The notes: a model not told the origin generated them from the letters alone. Positions 4,035-37,367 are shown, numbered from the stretch's first letter. The stretch is 64,000 bases of DNA from Escherichia coli (GCF_048403405.1 NZ_CP183129.1), one strand, 5' to 3'. Numbers and translations are program-made.

Positions 4035-5667
4035 CCTACTGATAGCGATGATAATCGTTGCGCTAATCTGGCCTGCAACCGCGCTCAGAGCGGCAGTGAG
4101 CAAAACAACCTGGGCGGATGCACCGGCACGCGAGTTTGTGTTTGTCGAAAACAACTCAGACGACAACTTTTTCGTCACTCCTGGCGGGGCGCTGGATCCG
4201 CGCCTGACCGGTGCCAACCGCTGGACCGGTTTAAAATACAATGGTTCAGGAACCATCTATCAGCAAAGTCTCGGCTACATTGATAACGGTTACAACACCG
4301 GCCTTTATACCAACTGGAAGTTTGATATGTGGCTGGAAAATTCACCAGTTTCATCTCCTTTAACTGGCTTGCGCTGCATCAACTGGTACGCAGGGTGTAA
4401 TATGACCACCAGTCTTATCCTGCCGCAAACCACCGACGCCAGTGGATTTTATGGCGCGACGGTGACCAGCGGCGGCGCGAAGTGGATGCACGGCATGTTG
4501 TCAGACGCGTTTTACCAGTATCTGCAACAAATGCCCGTCGGCAGCAGCTTTACAATGACCATCAATGCCTGCCAGACCTCTGTGAACTATGACGCCAGTA
4601 GCGGCGCACGCTGTAAGGATCAGGCCTCCGGCAACTGGTATGTTCGCAACGTCACCCATACGAAAGCAGCAAATCTGCGGTTGATAAATACCCACTCGCT
4701 GGCGGAAGTATTTATCAACAGCGACGGAGTACCGACTCTGGGCGAAGGGAACGCCGACTGCCGGACGCAAACCATCGGCAGCCGTTCAGGATTAAGTTGT
4801 AAGATGGTTAACTATACCCTGCAAACAAACGGACTCAGCAACACCTCAATCCATATATTCCCGGCGATCGCCAACTCGTCGTTAGCCTCGGCCGTCGGGG
4901 CGTACGATATGCAGTTCAGTCTGAATGGCAGTTCATGGAAACCGGTGAGCAATACTGCCTATTACTACACCTTCAACGAGATGAAGAGCGCAGACTCGAT
5001 CTATGTTTTCTTCTCGAGCAACTTCTTTAAACAGATGGTGAACCTCGGGATCAGCGATATCAACACCAAAGATCTATTCAACTTTCGCTTTCAGAACACC
5101 ACATCACCGGAGTCTGGCTGGTATGAATTTTCTACCTCCAACACGCTGATTATCAAACCCCGTGATTTCAGCATCAGTATTATCTCCGATGAATATACTC
5201 AGACACCGTCGCGGGAGGGATATGTCGGCAGCGGCGAGTCGGCACTCGATTTCGGCTATATCGTAACCACCAGCGGTAAAACAGCTGCCGACGAAGTGCT
5301 GATCAAGGTGACCGGACCCGCGCAGGTGATTGGCGGGCGCTCCTATTGTGTCTTCAGCTCCGATGACGGTAAGGCGAAAGTACCGTTCCCGGCGACGCTT
5401 TCCTTTATTACCCGCAACGGAGCTACAAAAACCTACGATGCCGGGTGCGATGATAGCTGGCGGGATATGACCGATGCGCTGTGGCTGACCACACCGTGGA
5501 CTGATATCTCTGGCGAAGTGGGGCAGATGGATAAGACCACAGTCAAATTTTCGATTCCAATGGATAACGCCATTTCGCTGCGTACGGTAGATGATAACGG
5601 CTGGTTTGGCGAAGTCAGCGCTTCAGGAGAAATTCATGTTCAGGCGACGTGGCGTAACATTAACTAA
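4024..5667 (+). CDS. ecpD: Ecp pilus tip adhesin subunit
   Basis: 547-aa secreted protein, overlaps ecpC end; operon position. Confidence 0.88.
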
Positions 5668-6346
5668 GGCCCTGCTGACAGCGGTCTGTATGCTGGCGGC
5701 ACCTTTGACACAGGCGATTTCGGTCGGCAATCTGACATTTTCGCTGCCGTCCGAGACTGACTTTGTCAGCAAACGTGTAGTGAATAACAACAAAAGCGCA
5801 CGGATATACCGTATTGCCATCAGTGCTATCGATAGCCCGGGCAGCAGTGAATTGCGCACCCGACCGGTGGATGGTGAACTGCTTTTCGCCCCCCGCCAGC
5901 TGGCGTTGCAGGCTGGTGAGAGCGAGTATTTTAAATTTTACTATCATGGTCCACGGGATAACCGCGAGCGCTACTACCGGGTCTCATTTCGCGAGGTCCC
6001 CACTCGCAACCAGACAAGACGCAGCCCAACCGGCGGCGAGGTTAGCACGGAGCCGGTGGTGGTGATGGTTACCATTCTGGTAGTACGACCACGTCAGGTT
6101 CAATTTAAATGGTCCTTCGACCAGGTGACAGGAACGGTAAGTAACACTGGCAACACATGGTTTAAGCTACTGATTAAGCCAGGATGTGATTCGACCGAAG
6201 AGGAAGGCGATGCCTGGTACCTACGTCCGGGAGACGTTGTTCATCAGCCTGAGTTACGTCAGCCGGGGAATCATTATCTGGTCTATAACGACAAATTCAT
6301 TAAGATTAGCGATTCCTGTCCGGCTAAGCCCCCTTCGGCGGACTAA
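5636..6346 (+). CDS. ecpE: Ecp pilus second chaperone
   Basis: Start at [14 protein letters not shown]; 236 aa; shares motifs with EcpB ([19 protein letters not shown] vs [20 protein letters not shown]). Confidence 0.85.
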
Positions 6347-6658
6347 GACTTATCCATCGGTCAAGGGAAGAACTCCACCTCAGAGACTCAAAAATCGTTT
6401 AAATAATGTGGAAGCGATCGTCAATGTCACCTGTAACGATGGGCTTTCTCATATGTACACCATAGTGTTCAGGAGACGCGGAAAGGTACCAGGCAGCCTG
6501 CTAACGAGTGGTTTATTCACGAATTAGTACGTAAAATCGGTAACGGCTGGAAATCATTCAATACTCACACTATCGAAAGTTCCCCAGCCAACCGCGGTAC
6601 GTTCTTACATACGATGTACCGCTGTTCTCTTTACGATTTATAGCTGTACTGGTGAATT

Positions 6659-6988
6659 ATGAGCAATCTGAATCCATGCATGACGTGTGGTGCCTGTTGT
6701 GCATTTTTCCGCGTCTCTTTTTACTGGGCCGAAGCCGACGATGCTGGCGGTACCATTCCCGCCAGGCTCACTGAACAAATATCCCCTTTTCACCGATGCA
6801 TGAGCGGTACCAATCAGAAAAACCCCCGATGTATTGCCCTTGCAGGAACACCGGGCAAAAATGCCTGCTGCACGATATATAAAAATCGATCGTCCACGTG
6901 CAGAGAATTCGCCATGTCTGGTGAGAACGGAGTCGTCAATGAGGCTTGCAATCGTGCAAGAGCTAAATACGGGCTGACACCGTTATAA
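6659..6988 (+). CDS. ykgJ: YkgJ-family putative zinc/iron-sulfur cluster protein (UPF0153)
   Basis: 109-aa ORF with [11 protein letters not shown] and further Cys motifs. Confidence 0.85.
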
Positions 6989-28606: not shown

Positions 28607-29221
28607 TTACACAGCGACAAAAGCCATCCCTGTAAACGTTCGTCGCGGGTTGCCACGTTCAATCTGGTGATGGAACATTCGCCGCTGCGATTTCAGCGCC
28701 GCGCTATTTTTCTGTTGCTGCTGCTCCAGCTTCCAGGCAATCAGCAATCGCGCCAGCCGTTTGTTAGCATGCTGGCTGCGCTCTGACTGAACCTTCACGC
28801 TAATCCCGGATGCCAAATGCGTGGCGCGTACCGCCGAGTCGGTTTTATTGACATGTTGACCGCCCGGCCCCGACGAACGCAGCGTCTCATACCGGATCGC
28901 ATCGGATTGCTCCTGCTCATCAGCGGTAAAACGCCCAATGCCCAGAAACCAGTTTTTGCGCCCATGATGAGGCCGATACGGACTCGGACAAATCCACTGA
29001 ATAGTGCCGCACCAACTTTCGCTTAATGCCCATGCATTATCGCCATCCAGAGAAACCAGCGCTGAACGCAGCGTGTCAGAGTAGCGGCCCGTTTCTGTTT
29101 CCAGCACCGTTACCGCGACGTCTTGTCGGGTAGCTTCTTTAATCAGCCTGTCCAGTGCCTTTTTCACTGCGAGACAACATTCTTCCGGCCCCTGCGCTGA
29201 GGAGAGTTGTAGCAAGATCAT
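28607..29221 (-). CDS. prfH: Peptide chain release factor homolog PrfH
   Basis: GGQ motif ([28 protein letters not shown]); start at [11 protein letters not shown]; overlaps rtcB2 stop. Confidence 0.85.
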
Positions 29222-30369
29222 CCTTTTTTCCCTCCACTGTTTTTGAGCGTTAGCACCGGACGCAGTCGCGCGACAGGAATAATTAAACCGGCTTGCACCA
29301 GACATTGCACCACACTTTCAGCCGATTTATAGGCTTGTGGCGCTTCTTCGAAGATGAGTTGTTTATCGCGACAAATCACCCGGCTGCCAAGTTCAGTACG
29401 CGAGAGTTGCGTCGCCGTGTAATTCGCTGCCAGACGCCCTTTACACTCGGTGCGCCCCCATTTACGCCCTGCCCCATGCGCCAGCGAGTGGAGCGTTTTT
29501 TCGTTCGCAACAGGTTTAACCAGCCAGGAGTAATCACCGCGTGAACCGGGAATAATCACCAGACCGTTGTCATCCGGCGTGGCACCTTTACGATGCAACC
29601 AGCCCTGTTGATCGCCGATTTGGCACGCGCTAACAAAGTTATGCGCCACATCCAGAACCGGACTTCCGGTGGCCTTAACTTGTTGCATTATGCGCAAAGC
29701 GATCATCTGGCGATTAATACGCGCAAACGCCAGCGCATCGTCATGTTCCGCAATATACCGTAGCGCGTCGTCACTGCCTTCAGGCAAACCATGATGCGAA
29801 AACGAGGCAATATGCCGCTGTAAAATAGACTGCCCCAACCCCCTCGAGCCGCTATGAACCAGCAGTTGCAGATGCTGCGCATCCAGACCTGCCAGTGCAA
29901 ACAGTTCAGCGTCGATGATTTCATCAACTTGTTGCAGTTCTGCAAAGTGGTTTCCGCCACCGATAGAGCCAAGCGAGCTGCGCCACGAATGCTGTGCAAA
30001 TGCTGACGGCAGGTTTTCCTCCAGCCAGCTTTCTTCAGCAACGTCATCCAAAGCTGATAATCGCTTTTCAAACTTATCGGCGTTGTATTTACGAGCGAGA
30101 ATATCTGTTTGCCATAGCGCCATGCCGCAGCCGATATCATTGCCGACCAGTGCCGGGTAAAAACGGCCTGCGGAGAAGAACGCTGCGCCAATCGGGTAGC
30201 CGCGTCCGGGATGTAAATCTGGCATCCCTACTACGCGCTGCATGTTGGGTAAATTTGCCGTGGTGTGTAATTGTTGGATCGCTAAACTCTCGATCCACAG
30301 GTCATCAGATGCGATGGTAAATACCGCATCGGATAAGGGACGAATATATTTGCCCATGTACCATTCCAT
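29218..30369 (-). CDS. rtcB: RtcB-family RNA ligase (RtcB2, PrfH-associated)
   Basis: 383-aa ORF with RtcB-type metal-binding His/Cys residues ([31 protein letters not shown]). Confidence 0.85.
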
Positions 30370-31883: not shown

Positions 31884-32939
31884 TCATAATCCCAGCACCA
31901 GTTGTCTTTCCATTTGCGGGTCAAGCAACGTCACATGCAGCCCCACCAGTCGCACACCGCGCCCGCCGCGGCGTTCATCCCAGGTTTTACGCGCGGTGGC
32001 GATTAGATCAGCTTTATTCAGCCGCGGCCAGACGTGCTCCTGAGTAGTTTGCTGAAAATCGTCGAACTTTAATTTCACCCCCTGGCGAGCAATCAGTAAA
32101 TCAGGTTTTACTTTTGCCAGACGACGTTCAAGTTCCGGATACAGCCGCTCGATAATCGCTTCACATTCAGACCAGTGATGAATATCTTCCGCCATCGTGC
32201 GTTCCACGCCGACAGATTTTCGCAACCGTTCGCTGTTAACGTCGCGCTCGTCAATCCCCTGACTACGCTCCCACAAAATGCGGCCAAATTTGCCAAAACG
32301 TTTGAGCAGAGTCACCAGATCACACTTTTGCACATCACCGCAGGTCCGCAGCCCCATCGCTTCCAGTTTTGCCGCCGAGACTTTGCCGACGCCGGGGATT
32401 TTTGCCAGCGGTAAGGTTTGTAAAAATGTCGGAACTTCTGCCGGCGTAATCACAAACTGGCCGTTGGGTTTATTCATGTCGGAGGCGATTTTGGCGAGAA
32501 ACTTTACTGGTGCCACGCCCGCAGACGCCGTCAGTTGCAGCTCGTTGAAGATTGTCTGGCGGATTTCCTGGGCGATGAGGGTCGCAGAACCGTGGCAATG
32601 GACGCTATCAGTGACATCGAGATAGGCTTCATCCAGTGACAACGGTTCAATACGCGAGGTGTAGCGCGAGAAGATTTCACGGATATGATTTGAGGCTTCT
32701 TTGTAGGCGTCAAAGCGCCCCGGAAGCAAGGTGAGATGTGGGCATAATTTGAGCGCCATCCCTGTCGGCATAGCGCTACGTACGCCAAATTTACGCGCGG
32801 GATAATTGGCGGTGCTGATCACTCCCCGACGTTCGCGGCTGCCGCCAATAGCAATAGGGATATCGCGCAGGGCGGGATTGTCGCGCATCTCCACCGCTGC
32901 GAAAAAGCAGTCCATATCCACATGAATGATTTTACGCAT
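31884..32939 (-). CDS. dinB: DNA polymerase IV (Y-family translesion polymerase)
   Basis: 351-aa [36 protein letters not shown]... Confidence 0.97.
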
Positions 32940-32955
32940 TGCTCACCTCTCAACA

Positions 32956-32971
32956 CTGGTAAAGTATACAG
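32956..32971 (-). promoter_or_regulatory. LexA (SOS) box upstream of dinB
   Basis: cactggtaaagtatacagtg; contains CTG-N10-CAG palindrome 17 bp upstream of the dinB start. Confidence 0.8.
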
Positions 32972-33009: not shown

Positions 33010-33740
33010 CTAGCGCGTTCGCTGCGAATGCACCTGCTGCTTATCCAGCTTTTGCACCAGCGGCTGCACCACTTTATCCCCATGCTGACCAAAGTATTGA
33101 TACAGCGTATCGGACGCACTTTTGGTCAGCACCATAATCTCAATGCGTCGGTTGCCCGCGCTTTGCGGATTTTTCGCGTCCAGCAGCATCTGGTCCGCCA
33201 TCGCGCTCACCTGCATCACTTTATCTTCCGGCATTCCGGCCTCTTCCAGCACCCGACGAGCCGAAAGCGCGCGATCGCCCGAAAGGTTCCAGTTGTTGTA
33301 GATATTGTTTTTGTAGGCCATCGCATCGGTATGCCCGGTAATAATAATTTTGTTATCGAGCGAGTCGAACACTGGCGCGAGCTCCACCAGCAAAGTTTTA
33401 AAGAACGGCATAATCTGTGCGCTGCCGCGTTCAAACATATTGCGGTTCTGGTCATCTTTAATCAGCACGCGCAGTCCCTGGGGAACAATCTCCATCTCCA
33501 GATTCGCTTCCATATGTGCATCACGGGCAATGGTGTTGATACTGGTCGCCAGCTCGCCAAGCTCAGTAGCGGATTTCTTCTTCAGCAGCGCCGTTTTCTC
33601 ATTGACGTCACGCGCTTTTTTCTCCGTCTCTTCCGGCACCGCCACGGTGGCAGGTTTTGGCGGATGAGACAGGCTGATTTTATTTAACGGCGACAACCCG
33701 CCGCCATTGAAAATCGACTGCCCGTGCAGCGCGGCGATAA
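33010..33740 (-). pseudogene. lafU: Lateral flagellar motor protein LafU (MotB-like), N-terminally truncated: Flag-2 remnant
   Basis: C-terminal OmpA-like domain present (...IIITGHTDAMAYKNNIYNNWNLSGDRALSARRVLEEAGMPEDKV...NRRIEIMVL); no N-terminal TM anchor. Confidence 0.7.
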
Positions 33741-35479
33741 TGCTTTCACGCTCGGATTTACTGACGCTGTTGACAATCAACTTTATCGTCGTCACCAAAG
33801 GGGCCGAGCGTATTTCCGAGGTTTCTGCCCGCTTTACCCTGGACGCGATGCCCGGCAAACAGATGGCGATTGACGCCGATCTTAACGCCGGGTTGATCAA
33901 CCAGGCGCAGGCGCAAACCCGGCGTAAAGATGTTGCCAGCGAGGCCGATTTCTACGGCGCAATGGACGGGGCATCGAAGTTTGTGCGCGGGGATGCCATC
34001 GCCGGGATGATGATTCTGGCGATCAACCTGATCGGCGGCGTCTGTATCGGGATCTTCAAATACAACCTGAGCGCCGATGCCGCCTTCCAGCAATATGTGC
34101 TGATGACCATCGGCGACGGACTGGTGGCGCAGATCCCGTCCCTGCTGCTTTCCACCGCGGCGGCGATTATCGTCACCCGCGTCAGCGACAACGGCGATAT
34201 TGCCCATGACGTGCGTAACCAGTTGCTGGCAAGCCCGTCGGTGCTCTACACCGCCACCGGGATCATGTTTGTGCTGGCGGTTGTGCCGGGGATGCCGCAT
34301 CTGCCGTTTTTGCTGTTCAGCGCCCTGCTTGGTTTTACCGGCTGGCGGATGAGCAAACGCCCGCAGGCGGCGGAGGCGGAAGAGAAAAGCCTCGAAACAC
34401 TGACCCGAACCATCACCGAAACCAGCGAGCAACAGGTCAGTTGGGAAACTATTCCGCTGATCGAGCCCATCAGCTTAAGCCTCGGCTACAAGCTGGTGGC
34501 GCTGGTGGACAAAGTACAGGGTAACCCGCTCACCCAGCGGATTCGCGGCGTGCGGCAGGTGATTTCTGACGGTAACGGCGTGCTGCTGCCGGAGATCCGC
34601 ATTCGGGAAAACTTCCGCCTCAAGCCCAGCCAGTACGCCATTTTCATCAATGGCATTAAGGCTGATGAAGCGGATATTCCGGCGGATAAACTGATGGCCC
34701 TGCCCTCCAGCGAAACCTACGGCGAGATTGACGGCGTGCTGGGGAACGACCCGGCGTACGGGATGCCGGTGACCTGGATCCAGCCCGCGCAGAAAGCGAA
34801 AGCGCTGAATATGGGGTATCAGGTGATCGACAGCGCCAGCGTGATTGCCACCCATGTGAACAAGATTGTCCGCAGCTATATTCCTGATTTGTTTAACTAT
34901 GATGACATCACGCAGTTGCATAACCGTTTGTCGTCGATGGCACCGCGCCTGGCGGAAGATTTGAGCGCGGCGCTCAATTACAGCCAATTGCTGAAAGTGT
35001 ACCGGGCGCTGCTGACCGAAGGCGTTTCCCTGCGCGATATTGTCACCATCGCCACCGTGCTGGTCGCCAGTAGCACAGTGACCAAAGATCATATCCTGCT
35101 GGCGGCCGATGTGCGCCTGGCATTGCGGCGCAGCATTACCCATCCGTTCGTTCGCAAGCAGGAGCTGACGGTGTATACGCTGAATAATGAGCTGGAAAAT
35201 CTGCTCACCAACGTGGTGAATCAGGCGCAACAGGGCGGGAAAGTGATGCTCGACAGCGTGCCGGTCGATCCGAATATGCTCAACCAGTTCCAGAGTACGA
35301 TGCCGCAGGTAAAAGAGCAGATGAAAGCGGCGGGGAAAGACCCGGTGCTGCTGGTGCCGCCGCAGTTGCGTCCTTTGCTGGCGCGTTATGCAAGGTTGTT
35401 TGCGCCGGGGCTGCATGTGCTGTCGTATAACGAAGTGCCGGACGAGCTGGAGTTGAAGATTATGGGGGAGTTGAGTTGA
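33707..35479 (+). pseudogene. lfhA: Lateral flagellar export protein LfhA (FlhA-like), N-terminally truncated: Flag-2 remnant
   Basis: FlhA-like from ...NFIVVTKGAERISEVSARFTLDAMPGKQMAIDADLNAG onward; lacks the first roughly 100 residues. Confidence 0.7.
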
Positions 35480-35576
35480 TGGGGGAGACTATATAAGGTC
35501 TCGGACTGTCCCCTCGCCCCTTTGGGGAGAGGGAGAAAAACGTGTACGACTTTAACTTTTTCGCAGTATTGCCGTC

Positions 35577-36335
35577 CTACAAAATCGTCTCTTCCGTCAA
35601 AATCCTGCGCGCGCCTAAAAAATGATCCTGCCAGAAAGGTTCAGCTAACCGACTTACCCGAATGGTTTCCCCGGTGCGCGGCGACTCAATAAACTGTCCA
35701 TCGCCCAGATACACGCCCATATGGTCGGCAATCTCGCGGCTGTGGATATGAAAAAACAGCAAATCTCCCCGGCGCAGGTCGTTATTCGCCACAATGGTTG
35801 CCCGGCGAAAGTGATACATCTCATTAGCCGTGCGTGGGAGCTTCGCCTCGAGGATCTTGTTGTAGGCATAAAAAACCAACCCGCTACAGTCGAAGCCTTG
35901 ATCGGGCCGCGTGCCGCCCCAGACGTAAGGCTTGCCAAGCTGCTGCTCCAGGCGGTGAATCGCCACTTCGGTGATGTTGTGTAGATGGTCGCTGCTTAAG
36001 AAATGGTTGTTCTCCGCCAGCGCCTGCCAGCGTCTGTCACTTGCCTTGAGCGGCGCAGGAAACCATTCTGGATGCTGTTTTATCTGTTCGCGGTTGTGCT
36101 GGCGCAGCGCCTTTCTGCTTTCGGCATTGCCTTCCACAATATAGCTGGCCTGTTTTTTCAGATGGGTTTGGTACTGTTTTAATAAACGCGCACGGTTTTG
36201 CATCCGCTGGCGGGCGGCGTAGCTGAAAGAGATATGTGATGTGGTGGCGCTGGCGAGTAAAGGGAGCAAAACGCATAACGAAAACACGCCTGGATGCAGA
36301 AATCTGCCGAGCAAGAACGAAGACATGAAGGACAT
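35577..36335 (-). CDS. yafL: NlpC/P60-family putative peptidoglycan endopeptidase lipoprotein YafL
   Basis: C-terminal NlpC/P60 motifs (GFDCSGLVFYAY, ...DHMGVYLGDGQFIESP). Confidence 0.85.
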   Translation of the reverse strand: MSFMSSFLLGRFLHPGVFSLCVLLPLLASATTSHISFSYAARQRMQNRARLLKQYQTHLKKQASYIVEGNAESRKALRQHNREQIKQHPEWFPAPLKASDRRWQALAENNHFLSSDHLHNITEVAIHRLEQQLGKPYVWGGTRPDQGFDCSGLVFYAYNKILEAKLPRTANEMYHFRRATIVANNDLRRGDLLFFHIHSREIADHMGVYLGDGQFIESPRTGETIRVSRLAEPFWQDHFLGARRILTEETIL

Positions 36336-36626
36336 AAACCGGCTGAATGAAGGTGAGAATTTTAAAAGACCAGAGGAGTAAACGGGATTATTAATTGCTT
36401 ATTTGCATATTACTATTGAGGTTTCATAATCTTAGGAAATAAATGATACATGCGCTTTTCGGACTATTGAAAACTGCCCCTGTGCTAAATTTGTAAACCC
36501 TGCGCCGACAGGCTTGCGTAAAACTCTTTTGGTGATAATGTGAGCCTTCCCAATCCAGACTATTCCGATTTGGGATCCATTTTGCCGTCCTGGCGTGTGT
36601 AACCGTTTTATCAAGGAATAAGCAGT

Positions 36627-37367
36627 ATGCGTAAAATCGCATTAATTCTTGCGATGTTGTTGATCCCGTGCGTTTCGTTTGCCGGTTTGCTGGGCAGCAG
36701 TAGCTCGACCACGCCAGTGAGCAAAGAGTATAAGCAGCAGTTGATGGGATCCCCTGTCTACATCCAGATCTTCAAGGAAGAACGTACACTCGATCTCTAC
36801 GTCAAAATGGGCGAGCAATATCAACTGCTCGACAGCTATAAAATCTGTAAATATTCCGGCGGCTTAGGGCCAAAACAGCGTCAGGGCGATTTCAAAAGCC
36901 CGGAAGGGTTTTATAGCGTCCAGCGTAATCAGTTAAAACCAGACAGCCGTTACTACAAAGCGATTAATATTGGATTCCCCAATGCCTATGACCGTGCGCA
37001 TGGTTATGAAGGGAAATATCTGATGATCCACGGCGATTGTGTTTCCATCGGCTGCTACGCGATGACCAATCAGGGTATTGATGAGATCTTCCAGTTCGTT
37101 ACTGGTGCGCTGGTTTTTGGTCAGCCGAGCGTGCAAGTGAGTATTTACCCGTTCCGCATGACCGACGCCAATATGAAGCGCCATAAATATTCCAACTTTA
37201 AGGACTTCTGGGAGCAACTGAAGCCGGGCTACGACTACTTTGAGCAAACCCGTAAGCCACCGACCGTTTCTGTGGTCAATGGCCGTTACGTGGTCAGCAA
37301 GCCGTTAAGCCACGAAGTTGTGCAACCACAGCTGGCATCAAACTACACGCTCCCCGAGGCAAAATAA
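36627..37367 (+). CDS. yafK: L,D-transpeptidase-like protein YafK (LdtF/DpaA)
   Basis: 246-aa secreted protein with YkuD-like [12 protein letters not shown] motif. Confidence 0.9.

Follow-up and report, generated by a model that had tools for sequence, protein, structure and literature searches.

Gene content of the locus

We analysed a 64,000-nt stretch (the window) of the Escherichia coli chromosome GCF_048403405.1 NZ_CP183129.1. The part under study, positions 33010-35479, is in our view the deletion scar of Flag-2, the lateral-type second flagellar system, with a young and repeatedly installed junction, and we put the probability of this reading at about 0.88. Two gene remnants, lafU and lfhA, lie there in divergent orientation, directly joined to each other, between dinB and yafL (Table 1), and the same layout is found in K-12, CFT073 and O157. 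The outer limits given in an original prediction made on this stretch were exact, 33010 being the first base of the lafU stop codon read on the plus strand and 35479 the final base of the lfhA stop. The Flag-2 scar as such is well known, and its genes bear the K-12 names lafU/mbhA and lfhA/fhiA. Earlier papers report this scar from K-12, B, O157 and E. albertii (PMC6993521, PMC3032704, PMC11420993, PMC5369007), and a passage of De Maayer et al., citing Ren et al. 2005, places the deletion inside lfhA and lafU with direct repeats at its ends.

Table 1. Features of the scar and its immediate neighbours, in window coordinates.
Feature	Position	Strand	Remarks
dinB	31884-32939	-	left neighbour of the scar and of the intact clusters; fixes the chromosomal position
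lafU (mbhA) remnant	33010-33778	-	1 nt of codon 52, codons 53-307 of 307, stop
spurious 5' extension of the lfhA reading frame	33707-33775	+	antisense lafU DNA; TTG at 33707
deletion junction	33776-33778		ATC, in single copy here, belonging to either gene side
lfhA (fhiA) remnant	33776-35479	+	codons 131-697 of 697, stop; FlhA-type export gate
spurious 5' extension of the lafU reading frame	33779-33900	-	antisense lfhA DNA; TTG at 33900, GTG at 33795
yafL (C40 peptidase)	35577-36335	-	right neighbour

The longest open reading frames (ORFs) at the locus are a minus-strand ORF of 296 aa (33010-33900) and a plus-strand ORF of 590 aa (33707-35479), which overlap at 33707-33900. The minus ORF contains an OmpA-like domain (Pfam PF00691) and scored 475 bits against the NCBIfam LafU equivalog NF005273 (cut-off 383), with the match starting at profile position 42 of 297. 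The plus ORF matched the FHIPEP/FlhA family (Pfam PF00771) from profile position 99 of 657 and TIGR01398 from profile position 114 of 678. The TIGR01398 score of 594 bits is under the 772-bit cut-off, as one would expect of a truncated protein. Since the profile matches start late, both N-termini are missing. This is what had been predicted, namely C-terminal parts of a lafU gene on the minus strand and an lfhA gene on the plus strand, and alignment to intact clusters agrees with it.

The prediction had also warned that the overlap of the longest ORFs is misleading. Judged from the alignment, the overlap across the junction is indeed an artefact, as each ORF runs into antisense DNA of the other gene. 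In the RefSeq/PGAP annotation the FlhA fragment is flagged as a pseudogene ('incomplete; missing N-terminus'), and a 261-aa 'LafU' is called on the minus strand at 33010-33795. The GTG start of the latter at 33795 lies in lfhA-derived DNA; it and the first six codons (VTTIKL) are antisense lfhA, and the protein is called intact strain after strain. This LafU call is an annotation artefact that propagates a chimeric protein family. The locus thus carries a warning for annotation, in that longest-ORF callers yield overlapping ORFs and PGAP names the LafU stump intact in thousands of genomes.

The deletion junction and the missing core

Five intact Flag-2 clusters, all located between dinB and yafL/rayT and taken in the orientation of the window, served as references: SM107 (L003), PEC1009, O111:H8 99.1145, AR_0055 and NRZ14408. 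In all five, lafU and lfhA are the two outward-facing end genes, which bears out the proposal that a cluster between two such genes was deleted. In a blastn comparison with SM107, in which the intact lafU occupies L003:1867-2790, homology on the lafU side stops at 33778 and homology on the lfhA side begins at 33776. Alignment to an intact cluster, suggested with the prediction as the way to pin the junction base, thus placed it on the ATC of Table 1 and showed neither gene to be full length. The two genes do meet as stated, a little to the right of the 33.7 kb originally given.

The trinucleotide ATC is present at both breakpoints in every intact cluster and once in the scar. The left intact site reads ...CTGTTGACAATC/CACAGCG... 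and the right one ...CTGATGATCATC/AACTTTAT... (the slash marks the break), and the scar junction reads ...ACAATCAACTTTAT.... The 12 bases preceding each break match at 9 of 12 positions, an imperfect direct repeat, so the short direct repeat that De Maayer et al. mention at the deletion ends is present as ATC plus this 9/12 match. The flanks are colinear with the intact clusters as far as the two ATC sites. The core absent from the window extends from lafU codon 52 to lfhA codon 131, amounts to 35,058-38,808 bp depending on the reference, and comprises lafT to lfhB, about 40 genes. The same junction was found in 8 of 8 E. coli scar loci examined and in the E. coli species representative.

The lafU remnant retains the periplasmic plug/linker and the OmpA-like peptidoglycan-binding domain in an open frame of 255 codons. 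Lost with the deletion are the cytoplasmic N-terminus and the membrane-spanning helix that carries the conserved Asp (AFADFTLAMMALFMTLW in intact LafU), and it is this helix that marks a functional MotB/LafU stator. On the other side, the first 130 codons of lfhA, which encode N-terminal membrane segments, are gone together with the upstream operon lfiMNPQR-lfhB and its promoter; a functional FlhA/LfhA has a complete N-terminal membrane domain and belongs to a fliPQR-flhBA-type operon, and the window remnant has neither. Because LafU is left without its membrane anchor and proton-binding Asp, and LfhA without its first 130 residues and its operon, the remnants would be inert pseudogenes, and their anatomy and substitution pattern (see below) suggest that they are not expressed.

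The event can be described as follows. In an intact locus about 40 genes stand between dinB and yafL, and lafU, a MotB-like stator gene, and lfhA, an FlhA-like export-gate gene, end the two terminal operons. In the window a core of 35-39 kb was lost between the ATC in lafU codons 52/53 and the ATC at lfhA codon 131, and the product is two promoterless 3' fragments placed tail to tail at 33776-33778.

Frequency in E. coli and occurrence in other genera

The queried 2.7 kb was 100% identical to a RefSeq E. coli chromosome, that of strain TUM14771. Of the 5,426 complete E. coli genomes that formed the survey set, 4,072 (75%) contain the scar unbroken. Because of this identity and this unbroken occurrence, the stretch is not a chance resemblance. 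The intact lfhA 5' boundary was found in 1,290 of the genomes (24%) and the core-side breakpoint sequence in 1,320. An alternative junction was seen neither among the 4,072 scar genomes nor among the scars of other genera. The allele of the window is rarer, with identity of at least 99% in only 11 of 5,430 matching records; overall nucleotide identity between K-12 and the window in the scar region is about 96%. Few genomes had a match to the last ~125 bp of the first query. Between 15 and 19 places matching the scar region in the E. coli genome collection were on plasmids rather than chromosomes.

A scan of species-representative genomes with a LafU fragment gave 21 loci. In 17 of them lafT-lafU was intact, including two distant Legionella matches at 35-40% identity. 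The other four were scars, in the E. coli representative, E. albertii NBRC 107761, Citrobacter sp. MGH106 and Kluyvera ascorbata ATCC 33433, and all four had the exact same junction, ...CTGACGCTGTTNACAATC/AACTTYATYGT.... The Citrobacter and Kluyvera scars stand on flanks typical of their genera, with LafU ~78% identical to that of E. coli, and the Citrobacter scar DNA is 74-85% identical to other Citrobacter. No break was found by tblastn in either remnant of the Citrobacter and Kluyvera scars, and an ORF listing confirmed that both are open in Citrobacter. Among the species representatives there was no close intact twin of the Citrobacter scar, the best being 85% identical, as expected between species.

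A separate observation concerns Pseudocitrobacter. Its lafT-lafU (L020, L021 and L032, positions 4979-6760) is 97-99% identical to E. coli at the protein level, as against ~78-82% for LafU of Citrobacter and Kluyvera. This similarity points to what may be a recent transfer of the Flag-2 region between genera.

Scar and intact twins

PEC1009, which has the intact cluster, matches the scar strain K-12 without a difference over the 2,780-bp composite of the two flanks, and the wider flanks of the two strains differ by 3 mismatches in 11,742 bp on the left and 0 in 10,736 bp on the right. For SM107, O111:H8 and AR_0055 we joined the flanks of the intact strain at the ATC and used these virtual scars as database queries. 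Over 2,780 bp the SM107 virtual scar had real counterparts at 100.0% (GF66.1 and 3CM), that of O111:H8 had its best match at 99.9%, and that of AR_0055 had many at 100.0%, including the sequence type 131 (ST131) clade A strain SE15. All 4 intact haplotypes tested therefore had a scar twin at 99.9-100%.

The agreement extends well beyond the composites. GF66.1 (scar) and SM107 (intact) differ by 2 mismatches in 11,372 bp on the left and 1 in 13,704 bp on the right. Between SE15 (scar) and AR_0055 (intact) there are 0 mismatches in 9,142 bp on the left and 0 in 13,704 bp on the right, so that 22.8 kb of flank is untouched, whichever the direction of the switch. Three haplotypes that are 3-5% apart are thus each found with and without the core, and no imported tract surrounds the switch in 22-25 kb of flank. 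In a comparison of the five intact clusters for the haplotype discontinuity that site-specific integration should leave exactly at the ATC sites, all pairs had diverged on both sides of the sites.

Diversity and selection in scar and intact alleles

We compared eight scar alleles (the window, K-12, CFT073, O157:H7 and four others) with four intact alleles. Synonymous divergence (dS) between scar alleles is 0.03-0.32. The pooled ratio of non-synonymous to synonymous polymorphism (pN/pS) of scar alleles is 0.051 in lafU and 0.030 in lfhA, and the corresponding values of intact alleles are 0.025 and 0.035. All 8 lfhA remnants and 7 of the 8 lafU remnants have open frames; neutral DNA of such length is expected to be disrupted after roughly 1% divergence. 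The two classes share 170 polymorphisms and have no fixed difference between them. The diversity trough at the junction that a swept or single-origin allele should show was absent from these 12 alleles. Pairs of scar alleles have a median identity around the junction of only 69 bp to the left and 20 bp to the right. The C/T site at 33787, 8 bp right of the junction, is polymorphic in the scar and intact classes alike, and E. coli scars also vary at 33770, 6 bp to the left.

Purifying selection on the remnants, which the pN/pS values of 0.03-0.05 would at first suggest, was considered and rejected on the differences between scars and their intact twins. These comprise 5 non-synonymous and 2 synonymous changes (3 and 1 between 2013C-3342 and O111, 2 and 1 between the window and NRZ14408), compared with 33:286 in the standing polymorphism (P=2e-4 for at least 5 of 7). 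Between the lfhA remnant of the window and the intact NRZ14408 allele there are 3 differences in 1,704 positions, of which 2 are non-synonymous, and the lafU side of the window belongs to a different haplotype from NRZ14408. Because the twin differences are mostly non-synonymous, which fits neutrality and not the standing ratio, the remnants behave as pseudogenes. Real decay is also seen, as a nonsense codon at remnant codon 102 of the KY174 (L010) lafU and as a frameshift in the lfhA stump of E. albertii NBRC 107761 (L022, about 5055-5073). From these patterns we infer that the synonymous-only diversity of the remnants would have been inherited from intact ancestors and that each scar is probably young.

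The lfhA gene is itself unusually diverse. Scar and intact alleles (the window, L003 and L011-L013) both have a very high dS between E. coli strains, 0.15-0.32, and the nucleotide diversity of the gene is 0.03-0.08 versus 0.01-0.02 in the adjacent end of dinB. This is several-fold more than in typical E. coli core genes, and it suggests old or imported alleles.

Sequence features of the breakpoints

What could direct a deletion to the same base pairs? Generic microhomology-mediated deletion was rejected as the cause of recurrence, the breakpoint pair not being the best repeat available: an 11-bp and many 9-bp exact repeats exist elsewhere in lafU/lfhA. With these better microhomologies available, an ordinary illegitimate deletion could not credibly have recurred here by chance. 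A DNA hairpin with a 9-bp stem (TGACGCTGT...ACAGCGTCA; -10.5 kcal/mol, z -4.7) holds the left breakpoint in its loop; 46.5 kb of sequence contain 15 hairpins with stems of at least 8 bp, this one included. At the right breakpoint there is a 12-bp palindrome, the stability of which is not significant (z 0.04). A model with two hairpins is therefore only half supported, and it is post hoc.

A constant junction with unaltered flanks in independent backgrounds, the behaviour of a site-specific excising element, is what was found here. The two sites do not form a recognisable pair of recombination sites, as they share only the 9/12 match and ATC. No recombinase gene is annotated in the five intact clusters; a hidden or trans-acting enzyme may exist. 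The reciprocal junction that a circle or tandem copy would carry, attP-like and reading ...GATGATCATCCACAGCG..., was found in 0 of the 5,426 genomes, a weak negative since a transient circle is invisible in assemblies. A comparison by eye showed no convincing resemblance to dif/cer, hix/gix, integron cores, REP/RayT or restriction-site overhangs.

Competing histories of the junction

From the anatomy of the locus, the constant junction, the frequencies, the clonal pairs and the identity across genera, it would follow that, in E. coli and related genera, different backgrounds came to bear the same junction again and again, through its installation or through exact removal or restoration of the core, and that no single old event has been decaying since; the window scar would be evolutionarily young relative to the sequence diversity that surrounds it. 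Two accounts of how this came about receive equal weight from us, and neither quite reaches even odds. In the first, loss or regain of the core is precise and directed by sequence, through a DNA structure or an enzyme, and numerous lineages of Escherichia, Citrobacter and Kluyvera undergo it independently, always at the same two conserved sites of lafU and lfhA, the left one in the hairpin loop. Such an event covers the clonal pairs and the cross-genus identity with one occurrence each, but no mechanism for it is known. On this account the scar would be the convergent product of a hot-spot or of an unrecognised site-specific mechanism and not a relic of one ancestral accident, and scar lineages would branch off, only briefly, from an intact reservoir that is long-lived.

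In the second account, which we hold to be just as tenable as the first, the junction has a single origin and has been moved continually by homologous recombination, with flank conversions that end at the heterology boundary or exchanges in the conserved blocks adjoining it, so that each scar comes to lie on locally native flanks. One universal junction is then obtained with no need of a special enzyme. Conservation beside the junction is high, with at least 66 bp on the left monomorphic in most comparisons, and Chi octamers on either side point towards it: CCACCAGC at 33384-33391 (plus strand) and two copies of GCTGGTGG at 34492-34499 and 34501-34508. These sites would switch RecBCD to recombination 0.4 and 0.7 kb from the junction and so focus exchanges there. 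Movement across genera does occur, as the Pseudocitrobacter lafT-lafU illustrates, and passages of the literature tie flag-2 to recombination in ST131. Against this account, ordinary Chi-focused exchanges would still leave donor markers, and the three clonal pairs have none, without any foreign tract in 22-25 kb. Each clean pair would need several rare events, yet a scar twin exists for every intact haplotype tested. The polymorphic sites 33787 and 33770 are 8 and 6 bp from the junction, distances shorter than any known minimal exchange segment. For the other genera the account demands either polymorphism that predates the genera or recombination across 20-25% divergence followed by full 'naturalisation' of the flanks.

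One ancient deletion in an E. coli ancestor, inherited vertically with some recombination and decaying neutrally since, is very improbable. It would readily explain the single junction of all scar genomes, and since the 3-bp microhomology is not the best repeat, independent chance recurrence is itself very improbable. In its simple form this reading is already contradicted: scar alleles are as divergent and as constrained in pN/pS as intact alleles, their frames are open far beyond the divergence at which disruption is expected, the two classes are not differentiated and share polymorphisms within 8 bp of the junction, three scar/intact pairs differ by 0-3 positions over 22-25 kb of flank, and the same junction, with open remnants, stands on genus-typical flanks in Citrobacter and Kluyvera.

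Even less credible is a selected arrangement in which the truncated genes are alive and a soluble LafU C-terminal domain and/or a truncated LfhA is made: the open frames in most strains and in Citrobacter and Kluyvera, the low pN/pS among scar alleles, the PGAP protein call and a weak plus-strand sigma-70-like match shortly before the lfhA remnant, at 33714-33741, speak for it, and are outweighed by the 5 non-synonymous changes among the 7 since the scar/intact-twin split, by the nonsense and frameshift variants, by the lack of a membrane anchor or export signal in LafU, which would keep the peptidoglycan-binding domain in the cytoplasm, by putative starts that fall within the other gene's antisense DNA and lack a recognisable ribosome-binding site, and by the 170 common polymorphisms, through which inheritance from intact alleles explains the low pN/pS.

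Several points weigh against young, repeatedly installed scars with inert remnants. The twin differences amount to a sample of only 7 changes. The twins were chosen as best matches among thousands of genomes, so that rare events are enriched, and the comparison does not fix the direction of each switch, loss or gain; passages of the ST131 literature read the polymorphism as an 'insertion' of Flag-2. The support for inertness comes from anatomy and substitution pattern.

If exact loss or restoration does recur, presence or absence of Flag-2 is unusable as a rare, phylogenetically informative event, a use it has had for ST131 subclades. A deletion mechanism that is precise to the base pair on 3 bp of homology would need explanation, and the 75:25 ratio of scar to intact in E. 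coli and E. albertii would be a dynamic balance rather than history. The population and cross-genus data make the textbook picture of a single ancestral deletion scar at least incomplete.

Comparison with known systems

The lfhA (fhiA)/lafU (mbhA) pair of K-12 consists of the same fragments with the same lengths, the same dinB-yafL/rayT position and the same junction base for base. It differs in that rayT and dinJ-yafQ adjoin the K-12 scar; within 35480-36640 of the window, rayT is absent from the lfhA-yafL interval and dinJ-yafQ from the yafL-dpaA interval. Compared with an intact Flag-2 of the E. coli 042 type, the window remnants are the 3' ends of the terminal genes, and the core of 35-39 kb is absent.

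Clusters under attrition such as ETT2 resemble Flag-2 in being large ancestral secretion or motility clusters that some members of a species have and others lack. ETT2 has undergone attrition by several distinct deletions, whereas the Flag-2 scar has one universal junction, across genera too. The XerCD/dif-flanked gonococcal genetic island and the skin and nifD elements are similar in behaviour only, namely in clean presence or absence, a constant junction and untouched flanks. Unlike these precisely excising elements, Flag-2 loss breaks two genes rather than restoring one, and it comes with no recombinase annotated in the five clusters and no reciprocal junction in the 5,426 genomes; by eye, no dif-like site is apparent at its breakpoints. 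The 'common deletion' of human mitochondrial DNA is alike in that the same junction arises, or seems to arise, repeatedly. Deletions of that type use a perfect repeat of at least 13 bp, in contrast to the 3 bp (with the 9/12 imperfect match) of the Flag-2 junction.

Intact clusters and neighbourhood

Intact Flag-2 copies often carry disabling mutations, such as an internal stop in flgL in SM107 and in flgK in O111:H8. The cargo varies between intact clusters, and in NRZ14408 the genes of a DNA cytosine methyltransferase and of a type II restriction endonuclease lie between flgA and flgM (L037, 26916-29633).

To the left of the scar, 70 bp separate the stop of lafU from the start of dinB, and this gap contains a LexA-box-type site, CTGGTAAAGTATACAG (CTG-N10-CAG), at 32956-32971, which is untouched by the deletion and is presumably the SOS operator of dinB. 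To the right, just past the lfhA stop at 35500-35540, the G+C-rich sequence CCCCTCGCCCCTTTGGGGAGAGGG forms an imperfect palindrome. It is similar to the CCCTCTCCC...GGGAGAGGG hairpins in the SM107 cluster (L003:24226-24308) and probably represents a small family of intergenic repeats. Near the locus, the toxin-antitoxin pairs yafNO, dinJ-yafQ and hicAB are strain-variable. Further to the left, at 29218-30369, rtcB-prfH is intact in the window and is represented by pseudogene fragments in K-12.

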